Below, piece by piece: positions 1 to 53,837 of a stretch of DNA of 64,000 bases. The stretch spans positions 1 through 64,000 of the forward strand of contig CAVXAT010000002.1 of the NCBI GenBank assembly GCA_963759805.1. The letters run 5' to 3'. The first letter of the stretch is position 1; every line of letters begins with the position of its first letter. The notes below the pieces were generated by a model. It saw only the letters and a list, made by a program, of their open reading frames with translations, was not told the origin of the DNA and did no database searches. A program made the position numbers and the translations under genes. Source of the DNA: an uncultured bacterium (GTDB lineage Bacteria; Babelota; Babeliae; Babelales; RVW-14).

Positions 1-46
1 AGTGATTGTGTTAAAAGTCAAAACTTTTTTTAAAAATTTTCGAAAA

Positions 47-982
47 TTAAACTTTACATAACTCGCCTCTTTTTAACAGCGAATTGGCAAGAATAATTAG
101 TTTGCGCATAACGGCAACTATGGCCACTTTGAACGGTTTTTGATTTTTTATCAAGCGATCATAAAAGGCTTTAAGAATTAGGTTATGTTTAATGGTTGTT
201 AATGCGCACATGTAAATCTGATTTCTCGGGGTCATCCGTCCTCCCCGAATTCTTCTCTTACCCTTGAATTTACCGCTTTCATTGTCATATGGACACACAC
301 CAACAAGAGCCGATATTTTATTGTTACTTATTGTTCCAAGCTCTGGAACATGTGATAAAAGAAGAGCTGCAGAGGCAATTCCAATTCCAGGTATAGATTC
401 TAAAATCTCAGCTTTTTGACCAAGTTCGCTATCGTTTTTGAGTAAGCCAGATATTTGCGTATCTACCGTCTTGATTTCTGCGGTAAAAATTTTAATCAAA
501 CGTTTAATGCTCGGTAAACTCATTGCATGTGAAGGTTGCTTTAATCTTGTTTTTTCCGCAGCCAAAAACTTGGTAAGATCGTTTTTACGATTAACGAGAG
601 CTTGCAATTTGGCTTGATTCTCAGTTTTTTCAACCGTCGAATAGCCACGCGTATTTTTAGAACAAAATTCAGCAATTTTTCGTGCATCAATTTTATCGTT
701 TTTGCTTTTGCATCCAGTTGAAACAATAAAACCCCTTATTCGCCTCGGATCAATAATCCAAAGGTTGTAGCCATTCTTTTTTAGCAGCGTTGCAAGCAGC
801 TTTTCATATCCTCCTGTTGCTTCACATGCTATTTGTGCAATATCTTGCTGGGCTATTTTTTTAATGAAACCCTGTATCGCAGCTTCTGTGTTGTCTATTT
901 TTAAGAGTGTTTTTTCAGGATAAATGCAAATATCTAAGCTGTTTTTAGAAATATCGACGCCTACATATATATTTGATACCAT
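47..982 (-). CDS. IS110 family transposase/recombinase
   Basis: RuvC-like DEDD motifs VGVDISK, CEATGGYE, KNDKIDA; C-terminal SIPGIG and ESGKFKG (catalytic Ser region). ATG at 982 with SD GAGGT is preferred over the ORF-track start at 1024. Confidence 0.95.
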   Translation of the reverse strand: MVSNIYVGVDISKNSLDICIYPEKTLLKIDNTEAAIQGFIKKIAQQDIAQIACEATGGYEKLLATLLKKNGYNLWIIDPRRIRGFIVSTGCKSKNDKIDARKIAEFCSKNTRGYSTVEKTENQAKLQALVNRKNDLTKFLAAEKTRLKQPSHAMSLPSIKRLIKIFTAEIKTVDTQISGLLKNDSELGQKAEILESIPGIGIASAALLLSHVPELGTISNNKISALVGVCPYDNESGKFKGKRRIRGGRMTPRNQIYMCALTTIKHNLILKAFYDRLIKNQKPFKVAIVAVMRKLIILANSLLKRGELCKV

Positions 983-984
983 AA

Positions 985-1195
985 CGATTACCTCTGGCTT
1001 GTAAACATGCGAGATCGTACCCAATACGTCTCAAGTGATTGTTCGAGGTTGTTTAATGTAAGTTGATAGTCTCAAACTATGGCACGATCCCTTATGATCA
1101 GCTCGAGCACGAGATCTATCAACTTCCTTGAACAATCGATATTAAAAAAAATAACTCTGGAATAAAGTTAATAAAATTCTTATTTATTTAATAGA
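985..1195 (-). ncRNA. IS110 bridge RNA (target-binding and donor-binding loops)
   Basis: Target loop: stem 1060-1069/1116-1125, inner hairpin 1086-1099, guides at 1100-1108 and 1077-1083. Donor loop: stem 990-994/1045-1049, inner hairpin 1011-1032. Guide ACAATCACTTG (1042-1032) is identical to the predicted circle junction, and TACAAG (1003-998) is complementary to the left end. Exact RNA ends are inferred. Confidence 0.85.
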
Positions 1196-1210
1196 TTTCT
1201 AACATACAAG

Positions 1211-1238
1211 CTTTAGCGACGGCTGGGATCCATGGATT
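1211..1238. repeat. Half of a palindromic repeat interrupted by IS110
   Basis: CTTTAGCGACGGC followed by TGGGATCCATGGATT. The GGATCCATGGAT tail is shared with the REPs at 30246-30279 and 54546-54579. Confidence 0.7.
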
Positions 1239-2287
1239 AGTTGCTCCTATTGCCAAATTGCAGAAATTTGGAATAAATTTATCCATTATATTTTTAAGCA
1301 TTTTTTTGCAGAAAAATTTGCACGTCAGGATCTGTAAATGGGGAACCCCGACGAACAGGTCTATGTGCTGACGAATACGAATGAAAAATGAGAAAGACAT
1401 CCCTGAGAAAAATGCTCAAATATTAAAGAATCATTTAAACAACTCGATTTGAGCAATTCTTTTTCTGGCAGAAAGCTGAGATGTCAGAAAAAGTTGTCTC
1501 TATCATTCTTTGAATTGCCTCATGGCTATTGTATGCATTATGCGGCGTCAAAATGACATTGTCGAATTTTAATAACGAGAAGGCTTCAATTGCCTGTTTT
1601 AGATTTTCTGCCGTTGGAACTTCTTCCTTATCTAAAATATACTCTTGATGAATCCAAATATCTCCCCCTTCAAATGTATCCATTGCCACCCCTCCAAATA
1701 TACCATCTTTAAGCCCTTTGCGAATTGCTGAGATGTTGACAATTGGCCCACGGGATACGTTTATAAACAAGACGCCTTTTTTTAATAATCTTAAGGTATC
1801 AAAATCAATAAGATGATGCGTCTCTTTGGTATATGGAAGATGAATAGAGATAACATCTGAAAGTTTAAGCAGCTCTTCTAAAGATTTATATTCTAACTTA
1901 CATTCTGGGAGTACTGCAGGTTTGGGTGATATGTCATGACAAATGATATTCATGTCAAAACCATTTGCCATTTTAGCAAGTTTGCAGCCTATTTTCCCTG
2001 TTCCAATAATACCAATGGTTTTGCCTGCCAAATCATGCCCTCGTGTTGTTTTCTGATCAAAGGTCCCATGCAAACTTTGTGCAAATGTTACACCTAATCT
2101 TCTGGAAAGCATTAAAATTAATGCCATCGCATACTCAGCAACAGTCTCTTCTGCATAAGAAGGTAAATAAATAACAGCAATGCTATTTTTTTTGGCAAAA
2201 TTTATATCAATACGATCAAGTCCGGTAGCACGTGCGTTTATAAGTTTCAAATTTGGCAAAGCCTGCATAATTGATTGATCTACCCTT

Positions 2288-3357
2288 GGAAAGTTCTAAA
2301 ATGAAGTGCGACACCTTTCTGGTATACTCCAGAAAACTTGTAACAAAAGGTGTCGCTATGAAAGAATACACGCATTTGAAATTGGATGAAAGAAAAAAGT
2401 TGTACGTGAAGAAAAAAGAAGGCATGCCCATGGCTGAAATAGCTAGGGAGCTAAAAAGGGATAAATCATCGCTTTACAGAGAATTGGCCCGCAATACGGC
2501 AGATTCTGTTGTTGGCTATCTTCCGGACGAGGCTAACAACCTGGCCGAAGAGCGCAAGGCAATGCCCATCCCAAAGCTTGATAGGCAGCCAGAAGCCAAA
2601 GCTGTTGTAATTGAGCAATTGAAGGATGGTTGGTCGCCGGAGGTTATTGCTGGAAGAGGGAAACTTGAAGACTTCCCCTTTTAGGATATCCCATGAGGCT
2701 ATCTACCAATTTATATATGGCAACGAAGGGCAGAAGCTTGGATTGTACAAGTTTTTGCTACGAGCAAGGCCAAAACGTGGATTGGTTCACGGACGTAAGG
2801 CCCAAAAAGCTAAAATACCTGACAGGATATCCATCCACGATCGTCCAGTACATATCGCAACTCGAGATGAGTTTGGACATTACGAAGGCGATTTGACATT
2901 TTTTACCAACAATCAGTCCATGAATCTTGGGGTTATTGTAGAGCGAAAAACGCGAATGCTAACTCTTATTAAGAATGAATCAAAGCATGCTGCTATTGTT
3001 ATGAAGGGCATGTTTAACAAGTTGGTGAGTTGCCAAATTTTGCACGCAAATCCATAACCTTTGACAATGGTCTTGAATTTGTAAAACATACCGTACTCAA
3101 ACGATTTATGGGCATGGATACATATTTTTGCGATAAACACTCGCCTTGGCAAAAGGGCCAGGTTGAGCAAACGAATTCGATGTTGCATCGATATTTACCA
3201 AAAAACTCTAATTTGAAGGAGGTGACGCACGAGCAAATTAAATTTATAGAACACAAATTTAATAGTAGGCCCAGAAAGTGCCTGGGGTTTAGAACTCCGG
3301 CTGAGGCTTTTAGTGAACAATTATCAAAGTTTGTTGCACTTCAAACTTGACTTTACC
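2288..3357 (+). mobile_element. IS30 family insertion sequence
   Basis: Imperfect 26-bp IRs (GGAAAGTTCTAAAATGAAGTGCGACA / TGTTGCACTTCAAACTTGACTTTACC); 3-bp target duplication CTT (2285-2287, 3358-3360). Confidence 0.9.
2358..3350 (+). pseudogene. IS30 transposase with two compensating frameshifts (~2680, ~3030)
   Basis: HTH (SSLYRELARN), WSPEVIAG, HEAIYQFIY, GHYEGD, TFDNGLEF and WQKGQVEQTN are spread over three frames. Both shifts are at homopolymers, so they may be sequencing errors. Confidence 0.85.
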
Positions 3358-3442: not shown

Positions 3443-4466
3443 ACCTGAGTTCGACGTTATAAAAAGTTAAGCATGGGCTGGTAAATTAAGCATAAACTTG
3501 CTTCGAAGTGATGGCTTTTTTGGCAAGAAACAATATGCAACAAGTCCGGCAATAAGATTGACAACAAAGTTTGTTGGGCTGCGATGTCGAGAGTGCTCTA
3601 TTTGACAGGTTTCTTTGAGTATACAGTTGACTGATTCTATGATTCCACGCTTACTAAGGCCAAGTCTATCTTCCATTTCCATGATTTGAATTTTCATTTT
3701 TTTCTTCAATTTTGTAATGAGTTTTATGCCTTTTGCAAAAAGCGCGTCAAAGAGCTTCTTTGAAATATATCCTCGATCTCCCCAAAGCTTTCCGAAGCAC
3801 TTTCGGGCAAGGTTGGTTACTACAGATGCGTTGTTGTCGGCAACATTACCAGGTGTGAGCATGAAAGATACTATCTCTCCGCACTCATTGATAATCAGAT
3901 GAAGTTTAAATCCATAAAACCATCCAGTAGACGTTTTTCCGCGTGCAGCAATTCCAGAAAACACCTTGTTTCTGTTGATTCGCAAATTATGACATACCTG
4001 AAGCTTTGTTGAATCGATAAATCCAAAGCCTGTACATTTGTTTTTACAACACAAATTCATAAAAATTGTTAACGGCACAAGAGCCTGCGGAACCAGCTCT
4101 ATAAAGCGATTATAGCTGACGATCCCGTCGAATGCGCCCTTCAAATCGCCACATTCTTTATAATATTTTTTAAAAGTACGATATCCAGAGTGATGAAAAT
4201 AAATGAGTATCGTCAGAATGTCACTGAGAGACATTCTTTTCTGTTCTCTTTTTACCAATGCCGATAAATCTGCAGAAATTGAATGTGCATCTAGATGTGT
4301 TTTAAAATCTTTACAAAAATTGTCTACGTCATAAAAAATTTGAGTTAAAATCATTTTACTTCCCTTTTTGAAATCCTTTTTTAGATTGGTTTTAACATTC
4401 TAAATCTATAGAGGATTTGCTTTAAGGGAAGTCCTTTTCAAAGAATTTTAATTGTCGAACTCAGGT
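3443..4466 (-). mobile_element. IS982 family insertion sequence
   Basis: Perfect 13-bp IR ACCTGAGTTCGAC / GTCGAACTCAGGT; flanking direct repeat TAATTA (3437-3442, 4467-4472). Confidence 0.9.
3467..4354 (-). CDS. IS982 family DDE transposase
   Basis: SYNRFIEL, FIDST, GWFYGFKLH, GDRGY, IIESV and IEHSRHRS motifs. Confidence 0.93.
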   Translation of the reverse strand: MILTQIFYDVDNFCKDFKTHLDAHSISADLSALVKREQKRMSLSDILTILIYFHHSGYRTFKKYYKECGDLKGAFDGIVSYNRFIELVPQALVPLTIFMNLCCKNKCTGFGFIDSTKLQVCHNLRINRNKVFSGIAARGKTSTGWFYGFKLHLIINECGEIVSFMLTPGNVADNNASVVTNLARKCFGKLWGDRGYISKKLFDALFAKGIKLITKLKKKMKIQIMEMEDRLGLSKRGIIESVNCILKETCQIEHSRHRSPTNFVVNLIAGLVAYCFLPKKPSLRSKFMLNLPAHA

Positions 4467-31742: not shown

Positions 31743-33551
31743 ATGAAAATGTTTAAGAAAATAATATTATCGATTCTGATAGCTGGCTGCACAAGTTTTG
31801 CAGCATTTGGAGCGAAAGATTCCGGTACAGCGCCAGCAACTGCGCCCAAAGCAGATTATATAAAAATACAACTCAAGAACGGAAGGGTCCTGCATCTTCC
31901 CAAACAAGTCGCAAATATTACAAAATATTTCAACAACCCTACGCAACAAGCTATGCGCACTGGCATTGAAACCGGTGTTAAATTTGAAAATTTTGATGAT
32001 AACGTCGTTGAGCTAACCTGCAGCATGATTAAAGTAATTTACAACTTGCGCCAAGATCAAGAGTCCCAAGCATACAGTAATGATACCAAAAATAAAATGC
32101 TTCAAGATATACTTAATCACGCGCTTAATAATAAACGCACATTGCTCAAGCAAACTGATTTTGATATCAACCAAGCATGGTGCTTTGCCGATTATCTCGA
32201 TGGAATTCCAGAATTAGAACAAGCCATTATGGCTGTGTTGGCCAAAAACATTTGTACACCAGAATTTCTTGATACATTCCAAGGCAATGAATTTTTATCA
32301 GATGATCCAACCAATGATCTAACCAATCAAAAATTTAGGGAGCAATTAAAAGAAGCTTTAAATAAGTATATAAAAATACATCAGCCTGATGTTTATGCGC
32401 GCATAATGCCTTACAGCTGCTCTCAAACATTGAGGTTGCGGAACGACAGCGCCTGTAGCCTATGCGTTACACCAGATGGCAAGATAGTTTCTGGATCTTT
32501 TTTTGGATCCATAACCATATGGATCTGTAATCCTGTAAATCATAAATATAGGCTGCTTCAAACACTTAATGCTTCAATTGGCGGTCTCCCCGATCCGTGG
32601 GTGCTGAGCGTATGCGTTACACCAGATGGCAAGATAGTTTCTGGGTCTGGTAACAATATCATCAAAATATGGTCATATAATCCTGAAACCCTTCAGTACG
32701 CCCTGTCTCAAACACTTGATTCTACGGTTGACGGCCATACCGGTTGTGTCAATTGCGTATACATTACACCGGATGGCAAGATAGTTTCCGGATCGAATGA
32801 CAATACCATCAAAATATGGACCTATAATCCTGAAATCCATCAATACACGCTGTCTCAAACACTTAATTTTCCATTTGATGGCCCTGCCGGCCATACCTAT
32901 TGTGTCAATTGCGTATGCATTACACCGAATGGCAAATTGGTTTCTGGGCTTTATGACAACTCCATCAAAATATGGGCTTATAATGGAGAAACCCATCAAT
33001 ACACCACCCTCCCTCAAACACTTGATTCTAGAGTTGGCGGCCATACCAATAGTGTCAATAGCGTATGCGTTACGCCAGATGATAAGATACTTTCTGGGTC
33101 TTCTGACAGTACCATCAAAATATGGTCCTACAGTCCTGAAACACATCAGTACGCCCTATCTCAAACACTTGTCGTCGGTCATGTGGGCAGTGTTGAAAAT
33201 GTGTGTGTTACTCAAGATGGCAGGATCGTTTCAGCACTTGAGGTCCCCCCAGGTTGGGGCGACATTATGGACTCAGCCATAAAAATATGGTCCTATAATA
33301 CTGAAACCAATCAGTACGCCCTATCCCAAACACTTGATTCTACAGTTGGCGGTCATACCAGTTTTGTCAGGACGGCATGCATTACATCAGATGGCAAAAT
33401 AGTTTCCGGGGCTAATGACAACACCATCAAAATATGGGCGGCGCCTAATTTAACGATTGAGCAGATTATTGCACGGTTAAAAAAAGAGCTCGTACCAGCA
33501 ACTCAGGTACGACAGAAACACAAACATAGGACGCAGTCTTCGTGGAAATAA
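31743..33551 (+). CDS. Secreted Skp1/BTB-like domain plus WD40 repeat protein
   Basis: Signal peptide; N-terminal region ending FADYLDGIPEL (resembles Skp1 AANYLDI); about seven GH..V..TPDGKIVSGS.D.TIKIW repeats. Confidence 0.85.
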   Translation: MKMFKKIILSILIAGCTSFAAFGAKDSGTAPATAPKADYIKIQLKNGRVLHLPKQVANITKYFNNPTQQAMRTGIETGVKFENFDDNVVELTCSMIKVIYNLRQDQESQAYSNDTKNKMLQDILNHALNNKRTLLKQTDFDINQAWCFADYLDGIPELEQAIMAVLAKNICTPEFLDTFQGNEFLSDDPTNDLTNQKFREQLKEALNKYIKIHQPDVYARIMPYSCSQTLRLRNDSACSLCVTPDGKIVSGSFFGSITIWICNPVNHKYRLLQTLNASIGGLPDPWVLSVCVTPDGKIVSGSGNNIIKIWSYNPETLQYALSQTLDSTVDGHTGCVNCVYITPDGKIVSGSNDNTIKIWTYNPEIHQYTLSQTLNFPFDGPAGHTYCVNCVCITPNGKLVSGLYDNSIKIWAYNGETHQYTTLPQTLDSRVGGHTNSVNSVCVTPDDKILSGSSDSTIKIWSYSPETHQYALSQTLVVGHVGSVENVCVTQDGRIVSALEVPPGWGDIMDSAIKIWSYNTETNQYALSQTLDSTVGGHTSFVRTACITSDGKIVSGANDNTIKIWAAPNLTIEQIIARLKKELVPATQVRQKHKHRTQSSWK

Positions 33552-35864: not shown

Positions 35865-36019
35865 CCTTCGACAGGCTCCCAGACTTCGCCCTTCCCACTC
35901 CGCTCAGGTAGCTCCGAGGGACAGGTCGTGGCTACGCCGGGCACGGCAGGACGAGCGCCATGAAGTAGGCGCGCTCGTGGTGAGCTCGTCGAACCATCAC
36001 CCTGTGACGCGCCGGGCCT
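35865..36019. repeat. Inverted REP doublet; the left REP carries a 69-bp nested insert (35879-35947)
   Basis: CCTTCGACAGGCTC|insert|AGGACGAGCG paired with CGCTCGTGGTGAGCTCGTCGAACC (35972-35995). Confidence 0.85.
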
Positions 36020-40956: not shown

Positions 40957-41808
40957 TCAAACCAACCCACCCAATCCCCGAACAATAGCCTCCAAAACGA
41001 CGTGCCAGTCATCATCCTGGTTAACTCCAACCTCAATCAAAAGGGCTGGGGCAACAATTCCACACAACGGTTTGAGCGGAATGCCGTAAAAACCCCCAAA
41101 ATCAAATATTTTCTGGTTGTCTGCCCCTGAAAGTGCATTTGACAACTGTTGACCAATATTTTTTGTTCTGAAAATACTAACTTGATGCGCCTGCAAAACC
41201 GATATCATTTTAAGAGATGGGAATGTCCTGTCAACAAAATCGCCAACAGGGTCTGCCACATGCTGGTAAACATAGACCTTTGGCCTAACTGACTCTAATT
41301 TAAAAAGATGGACACTTATGAATAGATCTACGTTTAAACGGTTGGCAAACGAGGCATTCTGAAAATCGACTATCTTTTCCCCGGGTACACGGGTCAAAAC
41401 AACCCTGAAATCATACGCTCGTTCAAAAGCACTTTGAAGCTCTTGGGCAAACCTAAACGTCGCGGCACGCTCAAAACCACTCAAGCTACGCCCCGGATCC
41501 CCCGCATGTCCGGCGGGATTGATCATAATGACCTTCTTTGCACCCTTGAGAGAAGGATCAAGAAAGGGGGCATTAGCGTAAGCCATAAAATTAGTTGCGA
41601 AAGTAGACAACCCCGCCATCAAAGTTAATGTGATTAAAAATAGTCTTCTTGCACAACTTGGAATTTTAAAAAGGCGCGCTCGTGGTGAGCTTGTCGAACC
41701 ATCGCCCGGCTTGTCCGTCGTAGCTCGAAGAGCGAAGTCGGAAGGGCGACGGGCCTGGTCATGCAAGAGATCTATTAGTCTGATTAAAGCTGATTTAAAT
41801 ATCTTCAT
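40957..41808 (-). CDS. N-acetylmuramoyl-L-alanine amidase (Amidase_3-like)
   Basis: INPAGH, ER, VVLTR, ANRLNVDLFISVH, PALLIEVG. The start is uncertain and the N-terminus overlaps a REP. Confidence 0.8.
   Translation of the reverse strand: MKIFKSALIRLIDLLHDQARRPSDFALRATTDKPGDGSTSSPRARLFKIPSCARRLFLITLTLMAGLSTFATNFMAYANAPFLDPSLKGAKKVIMINPAGHAGDPGRSLSGFERAATFRFAQELQSAFERAYDFRVVLTRVPGEKIVDFQNASFANRLNVDLFISVHLFKLESVRPKVYVYQHVADPVGDFVDRTFPSLKMISVLQAHQVSIFRTKNIGQQLSNALSGADNQKIFDFGGFYGIPLKPLCGIVAPALLIEVGVNQDDDWHVVLEAIVRGLGGLV
41672..41756. repeat. REP composite with a 33-bp hairpin insert (41710-41742)
   Basis: Matches 53790-53837 except that the 3-nt loop is replaced by 36 nt. Confidence 0.88.
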
Positions 41809-46236: not shown

Positions 46237-48309
46237 ATGTCTGAATCATTGACAGAAAGTAGCTTGAAGTTTTGGGAAAAGCAGGCTCAAAAATTACCTT
46301 GGTTTAAAAAATGGAATCATGTTCTAGCATGGAATGAACCATTTGCACACTGGTTTGTTGGCGGTCAAATAAATGCCTCATACGCATGTCTAGATATTCA
46401 CATTAAAAACGGATTGCAGGACAAAACAGCAATCATCTGGGAAAGTGAGAATGGTAGCTCACAAACTCTCACATACGGCCAACTTTATGATCAAGTAAAT
46501 AAATTTGCCAGTTTTTTACAAACACAGGGTGTTAAAAAGGGCGACATCATCGTCATTTATCTTCCAATGATTCCTGAAGCAATTGTGGCCATGCTGGCAG
46601 TGGCACGGCTTGGGGCAACGCATTCAGTAGTGTTCTCAGGCTTTAATACAACGGCATTAAAAGATAGAATTGTCGACACTCAAGCCAAATTCGTAATTAC
46701 AACTGATGCGGCATTTTATAGAAACAAAAATATTGTCCCGAAATATGTTGTATCAGACGCAATCAGACAGATTAGCCAGACTGCGCATGACAATGCAGCG
46801 CAAGCAAATTTTGTTAAAAAAGTTATTGTAATTAAGCGAACAGAAAATTCAATAACTATAAATCCCGATCTTGATGTTATTTACGACCCAAACACCTCAA
46901 CGGGTCCGATGGAACCTAGCCATGCGGAATTTGTTCCCGCCGCCGTGCCCGGCGTAGCCACGACCTGTCCCTCGGAGCTACCTGAGCGGAGTGGGAAGGA
47001 CGAAGCCTGGATGCCTGTCGAATCCAATCACCCTCTTTTTATTTTATATACATCCGGAACTACAGGAAAACCCAAGGGCATCGTCCACTCAACCGGCGGA
47101 TATTTAACTTATGTTTATTCAACAATTAAATGGGCTTTTAATATCAGCAAAGATTCAATTTACTGGTGCACGGCAGACATTGGGTGGATTACGGGGCATT
47201 CGTACGTAGTCTACGGCCCCCTCATGCACGGGGCAACAATTTACATCCGCGAGGGCGCACCTGACTGGCCAACTCAGGATGTCTGGTGGAAGGCAATTGA
47301 AAAGCATAAAATTTCAATTTTTTACACATCCCCAACGGCATTACGTATGTTCATGAAAATGGGTAACGAGAATATTTTAAAACACGATTTATCCAGTTTA
47401 AAAACGCTTGGTTCGGTTGGCGAACCGATAAACCCTGAAGTCTGGCGATGGTTCAATGATGTTATCGGACAAAAAAGGTGTCCGATAATTGATACGTGGT
47501 GGCAGACGGAAACAGGTGGTTTTATGATCTCTCCAACCGCAGGACTTAATCCTACCACAGAGCTTAATCCAATTGCAGAAATAAAACTTAAACCCGGGTC
47601 CGCAACCTTTGCATTACCGGAAATTGATGCTGACATTGTTGATTCAGGCGGACAATCCGTACCACCCGAAACCAAAGGGTTTCTTGTAATCAAAAAGCCT
47701 TGGCCGGGAATGGCAATTGGAATTCATAACAATCCACAAGCATTTCGTGAGATTTATTGGTCAAAGTTCCCAAGCATGTATTATTCAGGCGATTATGCAA
47801 TAAAAGATTCCGAAGGGTATTTCTGGTTACTTGGCCGAGCAGATGAAGTATTAAAAATCTCCGGCCATAGAATTGGAACATCAGAAATTGAAAGCATAAC
47901 ACTTGAACATGAAGCAATTGCTGAAACTGCAGTTATCGGAATTCCTGATGAGATAAGAGGAGAAGCAATAATTATATTCTCGATTCTCAAAACAAGTTTC
48001 ACCGTGAGCATTAGCACTGAACACGAAGTATTAAAACACGACGTATTAAAACACGACGTGTTGGAACACGAAGTGTTCAAGCAAGAAATCTTGCAAAAAA
48101 TCAGAACTCAGATTGGTGCATTTGCAACTCCAAAAGAGATTCACTTTGTTGAAAGTTTACCAAAAACCCGTTCGGGGAAAATAATGCGTAGACTGCTTAA
48201 AGCAGTTGTGCAGGGTCAAGCAATCGGAGACCTGTCCACATTGGAAGATGGAACGTCGATTGAAGAAATTCAAGCAATTTATAATATGATTAAGAAACAG
48301 TTGGGATAA
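46237..48309 (+). CDS. acs: Acetyl-CoA synthetase
   Basis: LYTSGTTGKPKG, TADIGWITGHSY, DTWWQTETG, PKTRSGKIMRR. Confidence 0.96.
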   Translation: MSESLTESSLKFWEKQAQKLPWFKKWNHVLAWNEPFAHWFVGGQINASYACLDIHIKNGLQDKTAIIWESENGSSQTLTYGQLYDQVNKFASFLQTQGVKKGDIIVIYLPMIPEAIVAMLAVARLGATHSVVFSGFNTTALKDRIVDTQAKFVITTDAAFYRNKNIVPKYVVSDAIRQISQTAHDNAAQANFVKKVIVIKRTENSITINPDLDVIYDPNTSTGPMEPSHAEFVPAAVPGVATTCPSELPERSGKDEAWMPVESNHPLFILYTSGTTGKPKGIVHSTGGYLTYVYSTIKWAFNISKDSIYWCTADIGWITGHSYVVYGPLMHGATIYIREGAPDWPTQDVWWKAIEKHKISIFYTSPTALRMFMKMGNENILKHDLSSLKTLGSVGEPINPEVWRWFNDVIGQKRCPIIDTWWQTETGGFMISPTAGLNPTTELNPIAEIKLKPGSATFALPEIDADIVDSGGQSVPPETKGFLVIKKPWPGMAIGIHNNPQAFREIYWSKFPSMYYSGDYAIKDSEGYFWLLGRADEVLKISGHRIGTSEIESITLEHEAIAETAVIGIPDEIRGEAIIIFSILKTSFTVSISTEHEVLKHDVLKHDVLEHEVFKQEILQKIRTQIGAFATPKEIHFVESLPKTRSGKIMRRLLKAVVQGQAIGDLSTLEDGTSIEEIQAIYNMIKKQLG
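46942..47010 (+). repeat. 69-bp nested palindromic insert, in frame within acs
   Basis: 67/69 identical to the reverse complement of 35879-35947; encodes AVPGVATTCPSELPERSGKDEAW. Confidence 0.95.
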
Positions 48310-53789: not shown

Positions 53790-53837
53790 GCCCGCTCGTG
53801 GTGAGCTTGTCGAACCATCGCCCTATGGGCGACGGGC
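53790..53837. repeat. REP-like palindrome (empty form)
   Basis: GCCCGCTCGTGGTGAGCTTGTCGAACCATCGCCC-TAT-GGGCGACGGGC. Confidence 0.88.

Follow-up and report, generated by a model that had tools for sequence, protein, structure and literature searches.

The closest described relatives of the element analysed here are IS621 of E. coli and ISCro4, members of the IS110 group that carry a bridge RNA at their left end, as far as the accessible parts of the primary reports describe them (Durrant 2024, PMC11208160; Hiraizumi 2024, PMC11208158). The available text of the IS621 structure paper has the handshake bases pairing with the opposite substrate at its position 7, and the accessible portion of a preprint describes recombination of half-matched substrates by IS621. 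That IS elements insert into REPs has long been known from literature available in part; REP targeting by bridge recombinases is already published for IS621 and ISPpu10, bridge-RNA guidance has been known since 2024, and the core mechanism considered below is not new. Here we describe an intact-looking IS110 element of the IS621 type whose three copies share a single insertion point within a dispersed hairpin repeat; it very likely moves as an RNA-guided recombinase. The copy analysed lies at the start of the window, the whole 64-kb stretch of DNA considered, with which contig C2 begins; the genome measures 1.5 Mb and is 89% complete.

The complete element occupies positions 1-1210 of the window on the minus strand and runs from CT core to CT core, the right-end core lying at 2-1 and the left-end core at 1210-1209. 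A BLAST search revealed two further full copies on contig C1 (C1:2786-3995 and C1:253207-254430; 99.9% identity), one of which lacks a single base of the recombinase gene. Sequence divergence starts directly outside both CT cores in all three copies and, because the two C1 copies have different flanks, the boundaries are fixed at 1 and 1210; relatives span 1179-1232 bp between the same ends. The initial annotation had placed an IS110 element at 1-1238: judged from the C1 copies, the element indeed ends exactly at position 1, while its other end has to be moved to 1210, leaving 1211-1238 as flank outside the element. Position 1 of the window is the first base of contig C2 and the upstream flank of this copy is consequently absent from the assembly; the flank GCCAT that had been predicted for it directly precedes the base equivalent to position 1 in both C1 copies. 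The terminal 16-base string of contig C14 has only two other occurrences, both of which run into exactly this filled hairpin, and on this ground C14 probably adjoins C2 at window position 1. Among the sequencing runs listed, none contained half of the sequence words sought and none was of RNA; of the 22 runs, contigs from 4 were compared, and none spans position 1 or the end-to-end joint, which provides no evidence either way. Viral contigs gave only four distant matches, and the 1566 plasmid records that matched were all below 60% identity.

The recombinase gene (47-982, minus strand) encodes 311 amino acids, with the ATG at 982 rather than the TTG at 1024 as the most likely start codon. Both IS110 domains, PF01548 and PF02371, were detected in a Pfam search run on the longer TTG frame, and the NCBIfam model NF033542 was passed at 194.5 bits (cut-off 140). 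When the query is aligned with 41 homologues out of 120 listed, residues D10, E54, D96, D99 and S236 never vary, so that the DEDD motif and catalytic serine that define the family occur together with both of its domains; the only PDB matches were ISCro4 and IS621 (E ~1e-34). Short CT cores at both ends and insertion of three copies at the same repeat base are further IS110 traits, and the long non-coding end upstream of the gene (~228 bases, compared with 46 bases downstream) is a trait of the IS621 type. A predicted Shine-Dalgarno sequence, GAGGT (990-994, minus strand), which doubles as the 3' side of the stem of the donor loop, precedes the gene, GAGG being present in 14 of the 14 aligned elements.

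The donor, its guides, the target guides and a junction promoter had all been proposed before, and each was recovered at its position, the promoter being known from sequence alone. The right end (1-9, minus strand) consists of the core (2-1) and the left donor half ACAATCA (9-3), with ACAATCA or ACAATTA found at the right end of all 22 copies compared; the left end (1201-1210, minus strand), identical in 22/22 copies, consists of the core, the right donor half and a predicted -10 box, TATGTT (1206-1201). A predicted -35 box, TTGACT (21-16, minus strand), holds the same register in 13 of 15 elements, is shifted by one base in another and altered in the remaining one. After joining of the ends the two boxes would stand 17 bp apart, a spacing that is conserved. 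Within the non-coding end, a target-binding loop is predicted at 1060-1125 (minus strand; fold z = -4.45, together with the guide-flank covariation described below), with its left guide at 1108-1100, right guide at 1083-1077 and handshake bases at 1076-1075, followed by a predicted donor-binding loop at 991-1048 (minus strand; fold and pair counts), with its left guide at 1042-1032, right guide at 1003-998 and handshake bases at 997-996. The two-loop fold was tested on the aligned elements: 96.9% of the cells are paired, 9 of 30 pairs show two-sided changes and none of 500 shuffles reaches this level. A target loop 5' of the donor loop, with conserved stems, is thus present computationally, as in IS621-type elements; RNAalifold favours a leader helix, discussed below, over the donor-loop outer stem, and the four Rfam matches all fall under the gathering score. 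By analogy with IS621 and ISPpu10, excision would yield a circle in which the two CT cores are joined, thereby creating both the donor site and a promoter with its -35 box from the right end and its -10 box from the left end; a single transcript would carry the gene together with the RNA, and pairing of the left-end RNA with donor and target would follow, leading to strand exchange.

All three copies are inserted at one base of a dispersed hairpin, as alignment of the flanks of the other copies demonstrated. The surviving half of the target hairpin at the window copy lies at 1211-1225 (minus strand), comprising the left target (1217-1211) and the arm GCCGTCGC (1223-1216). Empty sites that are identical to this flank and continue as the initial annotation had predicted exist at three places in the genome (C8:3654, C1:22843 and C4:5495); the site of the second copy has three empty twins and that of the third has close empty ones. 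One arm of this GC-rich hairpin is 8 bases long, the loop varies between 4 and 16 bases, and the other arm comes in three main variants; the hairpin pattern gives 63 hits, a few of them overlapping, compared with 0-2 in three Markov controls. The element has therefore entered a dispersed palindromic repeat, of which empty copies are present, at a fixed point, as expected of a REP-targeting IS110 such as IS621, ISPpu9, ISPpu10 or ISPa11. The hairpin is itself hosted by a larger palindromic repeat, part of which is seen at 1226-1286 (plus strand; matches at many loci): among 59 pattern hits of the larger repeat, 47 are empty and five hold a hairpin of 31-43 bases at one point, six being unclassed and a sixth 'filled' row being a 7-base artefact. 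Because larger repeats occur both empty and hairpin-filled, the sequences indicate that the hairpin unit itself inserts into other repeats, giving a nested arrangement of element in hairpin in repeat. The 36-bp hairpin unit at 41708-41743, which stands where the copy at 53809 has three bases, is the one cited earlier (at 41717) as an example of the same family. It does belong to the family, as a sibling of the target; its right arm matches the right guide at only 5/7 positions and, with these two mismatches, the unit is not a predicted target.

A search for a Y1 (RAYT) gene bracketed by the target hairpin, using our patterns in this 89% complete genome, found none among five Y1 matches, one of which has a single hairpin upstream. 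Three small GIY-YIG genes, L171 (C1:266306), L172 (C9:54564) and L173 (C1:132943), are each bracketed by inverted copies of a palindromic repeat in the manner of RAYT genes, and two more, L174 and L175, are preceded by a tRNA-like gene and by a hairpin similar to the target family; such small GIY-YIG genes are candidate mobilisers of repeats. Elsewhere in the window, at 1435-3350, a 2-hydroxyacid dehydrogenase frame lacks the start of its catalytic domain, the profile beginning at position 57 of 134, and adjoins a helix-turn-helix transposase-like stretch split over three frames, which we take to be a broken IS30-type element that cut the dehydrogenase gene. A second transposase (DDE_Tnp_1_3) lies at 3467-4354, and the same terminal sequence is found at the end of contig C10. 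At 32432-33466, repeats arranged in tandem every ~150 bases probably encode a repeat protein, and an 81-base GC-rich repeat occurs as an inverted pair (35867-35947 and 46942-47022; 95% alike).

The guides were then compared with the three insertion sites. At the window copy the left target guide matches the flank (1217-1209) at 7/9 positions, as had been claimed; this agreement does not extend to the other two sites, at which 4/9 and 3/9 positions match, plus one wobble each. Considering the seven non-core positions, the window copy has five matches and one wobble and the other two have 3+1 and 1+1; the levels of these other two are reached by 27 and 67, respectively, of the 68 empty sites with a G before the core. 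At both C1 sites a one-base bulge would improve the fit of the left guide, a post-hoc guess; by analogy with IS621, recombination of half-matched substrates is another possible source of weak-match sites. No genomic site matches the full 14-base predicted target, and the best match (8/9 on the left) lies outside the hairpin family. The proposal that specificity can be decoded from the guides thus holds only in part, mainly for the right guide and the base beside the core and not for the left guide as a whole. In the mechanism that we favour, the 7-base right guide would read the conserved hairpin arm and the G beside the core would be read by the left guide and the donor-loop handshake base, while the rest of the left guide faces the variable hairpin loop and is likely permissive; because the left guide would be mostly permissive, one guide could serve many members of the hairpin family, and landing in mostly dispensable repeats would spare genes.

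The use of sites with weak left-guide matches would also be explained if insertion also depended on the hairpin shape of the target as a second signal, either recognised by the protein or necessary to open the DNA, a possibility that we take seriously while judging it somewhat improbable. The hairpin family hosts all three copies here and 4/5 copies of a relative, and, in the accessible part of the ISPpu10 report, the target stem-loop raises integration, loss of the stem-loop reducing it to 43.85% of wild type. However, the genome holds 149 empty right-guide sites, 68 of which have a G before the core, and 28 of these 68 are family members, so that finding 3/3 copies in the family has a chance of 0.07 from sequence alone; furthermore, only 4 of 20 reconstructed targets fold better than nearly all of their shuffles (<=10/200), and the stem here would include the right target, unlike that of ISPpu10. 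The fifth copy of the relative (L011) also counts against a required hairpin, as it lies outside any family member, in apparent coding sequence, where the right guide matches at 6/7 positions and the left guide hardly at all. The same chance of 0.07 can be turned round to argue that the repeat is hit merely as the commonest source of a short right-guide sequence, with a guide that is not tuned to it, as can the position of the best 14-base match outside the family and the lack of any full one. We consider this unlikely, since the right guide exactly fits the largest of the three arm variants and several relatives with different right guides also reside in palindromic repeat-like flanks.

Evidence that the guides themselves direct targeting, as initially proposed, came from relatives of the element. 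The sample comprised 22 loci, all at >=56% identity, holding 14 distinct target loops on a nearly fixed donor; the named loci are from Babeliales, Dependentiae or unclassified bacteria, and the same target loops recur in genomes from the window's own order. The right guide agrees with its own flank at target positions 10-14 at a rate of 0.88 compared with 0.40 when permuted, and the left guide at positions 1-7 at 0.66 compared with 0.35; none of 10,000 permutations reaches either value, although these counts overstate independence because the 14 elements share ancestry. Among the 13 loops that had a left flank, the left-guide match rate is 0.28 at position 1 and climbs to 1.0 at position 7. 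Right-guide match rates are 0.73-0.98 across positions 10-14, with no signal of pairing at positions 15-16 (0.196 vs 0.201). In 14/14 elements the donor loop carries a first handshake base complementary to target position 7 (C-G in 11, G-C in two and U-A in one), a U in the target-loop handshake lies opposite an invariant donor A, and the donor change from ACAATCA to ACAATTA is mirrored in the guide in both elements that carry it. A pattern search of 261 genomes found 19 places, three of them new: a fifteenth element, whose right guide predicts its flank at 7/7 positions and whose left guide fits poorly, and two further copies that fit the guide-flank rule. The remaining explanation, targeting by the protein or by homology, with guide matches that are chance or relics, could draw on the poor left-guide fit at 2/3 sites here; we regard it as extremely improbable, as proteins 79-80% identical carry different guides and have correspondingly different flanks, and as the covariation and handshake results in relatives speak against it.

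In the phylogenetic tree, 13 close elements form one supported clade whose inner order is mostly open. Owing to this, to the omission of L091 and to the branch of L092 being inflated by a frameshift, retargeting events were not counted from the tree. One sequence, OY969622.1, holds two elements of the clade, L009 and L019, ~6 kb apart; because they share the donor and differ in their target loops, each could be able to move the other. At the left end of L016 the first ~18 bases are duplicated in tandem.

The leader of the left-end RNA contains a segment (1126-1137, minus strand) that is complementary to the 5' strand of the donor loop and the left donor guide (1048-1037), as detected by folding and shuffling. 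In the lowest-energy fold of the left end, 1137-1126 is paired to 1048-1037, which covers the left donor guide and displaces a donor-loop stem that contains the predicted ribosome-binding site, and the naked RNA is predicted to prefer the fold without the donor loop by 4 kcal/mol. The segment beats shuffles in 12 of 14 elements in a narrow window (<=6/300), and it is also present in the fifteenth element (9/300); in a wider window it was found in 11/14 close relatives compared with 2/30 distant elements, the distant set being the 30 of 115 distinct loci with a callable donor guide. With the leader, the probability of the donor-loop outer stem is <=0.10 in 10/14 elements, compared with >=0.64 in 11/14 without it, and the predicted ribosome-binding site is more open in 13/14; in the window element itself the site opens only slightly (0.55 vs 0.45), and even without the leader the stem has a low probability (0.19). 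Covariation in the leader helix was not significant (52 of 500 shuffles), and an adjoining 8-mer is equally conserved; the segment could be carried passively by shared ancestry. Two other roles were considered and rejected. As a DNA copy of the donor, the segment should follow the right end; its complementarity tracks the RNA scaffold instead, no CT core adjoins it and, on the sense strand, its variants form G-U wobbles. As a promoter, it lies at a distance from the target loop that varies between 7 and 17 bases, and a promoter scan shows no box starting there.

We tentatively propose, while rating it as rather improbable, that in this Babeliales clade the left-end RNA acts as a self-contained switch, and that a single fixed donor is used with at least 15 target loops, several of which are directed at nested mobile hairpins. 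In the mRNA state, the leader would pair with the donor guide and with the 5' side of the stem of the donor loop, hiding the guide and leaving the ribosome-binding site of the recombinase free; in the bridge state, recombinase binding or trimming of the leader would flip the RNA and bury the ribosome-binding site, so that one RNA would exert negative feedback on its own enzyme. Such a switch, if real, would address how one transcript can be both mRNA and guide, and removal of the leader would be predicted to improve activity. The literature searches, which covered openly readable text, found no report of IS110 in Babeliales and no cis switch in a bridge RNA.

The element offers a compact (311 amino acids) predicted bridge recombinase from a little-sampled lineage in which target, donor and empty sites are all readable. 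Moreover, 15 target loops on one scaffold and one donor form a natural series in which evolution indicates which guide positions matter, positions 10-14 of the right guide and position 7 being strict and the distal left guide loose.

Compared with known systems, the element resembles IS621 and ISCro4 in its RuvC-like DEDD and serine-bearing domains, CT core, handshake bases, palindromic-repeat insertion, predicted junction promoter and predicted two-loop RNA upstream of the gene; it differs in its distant protein (E ~1e-34), its donor and target, its weak left guide and its host, most likely a member of the Babeliales. Its natural right guide has 7 bases as opposed to 4 in IS621, longer natural guides being reported in the accessible literature. 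The outer repeat, with its TGTC start, 8-bp stem and CCA tail, is similar to the CGTC-tagged REPs as described in the available text of Di Nocera 2013 (PMC3733652), while the inner target hairpin matched no named family, the CGTC-tagged REPs again being compared by text description. According to the part of the report available, ISPpu10 of Pseudomonas putida (bioRxiv 10.64898/2026.03.19.712850) likewise targets a REP hairpin with a strict right guide and a left guide that is permissive except beside the core, a property measured there; its stem is formed by a 5' extension and the left target, whereas in the present element the right target forms a stem arm and the left target lies across the loop, and dependence on the stem has been measured, in these sources, for ISPpu10 only. 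ISPpu9 (PMC8450116, PMC12288879) is, in the accessible text, also a REP-targeting IS110 with a 5' leader structure that likely hides the ribosome-binding site; that leader is opened in trans by an antisense RNA, whereas the candidate opener here is a segment of the same RNA. Finally, as in ISEc11/ISXne4 and ISEc21/ISMch6 (PMC11187229), close relatives have been retargeted through guide changes, and, unlike those pairs, the elements described here constitute a clade of 15 target loops with one nearly fixed donor.
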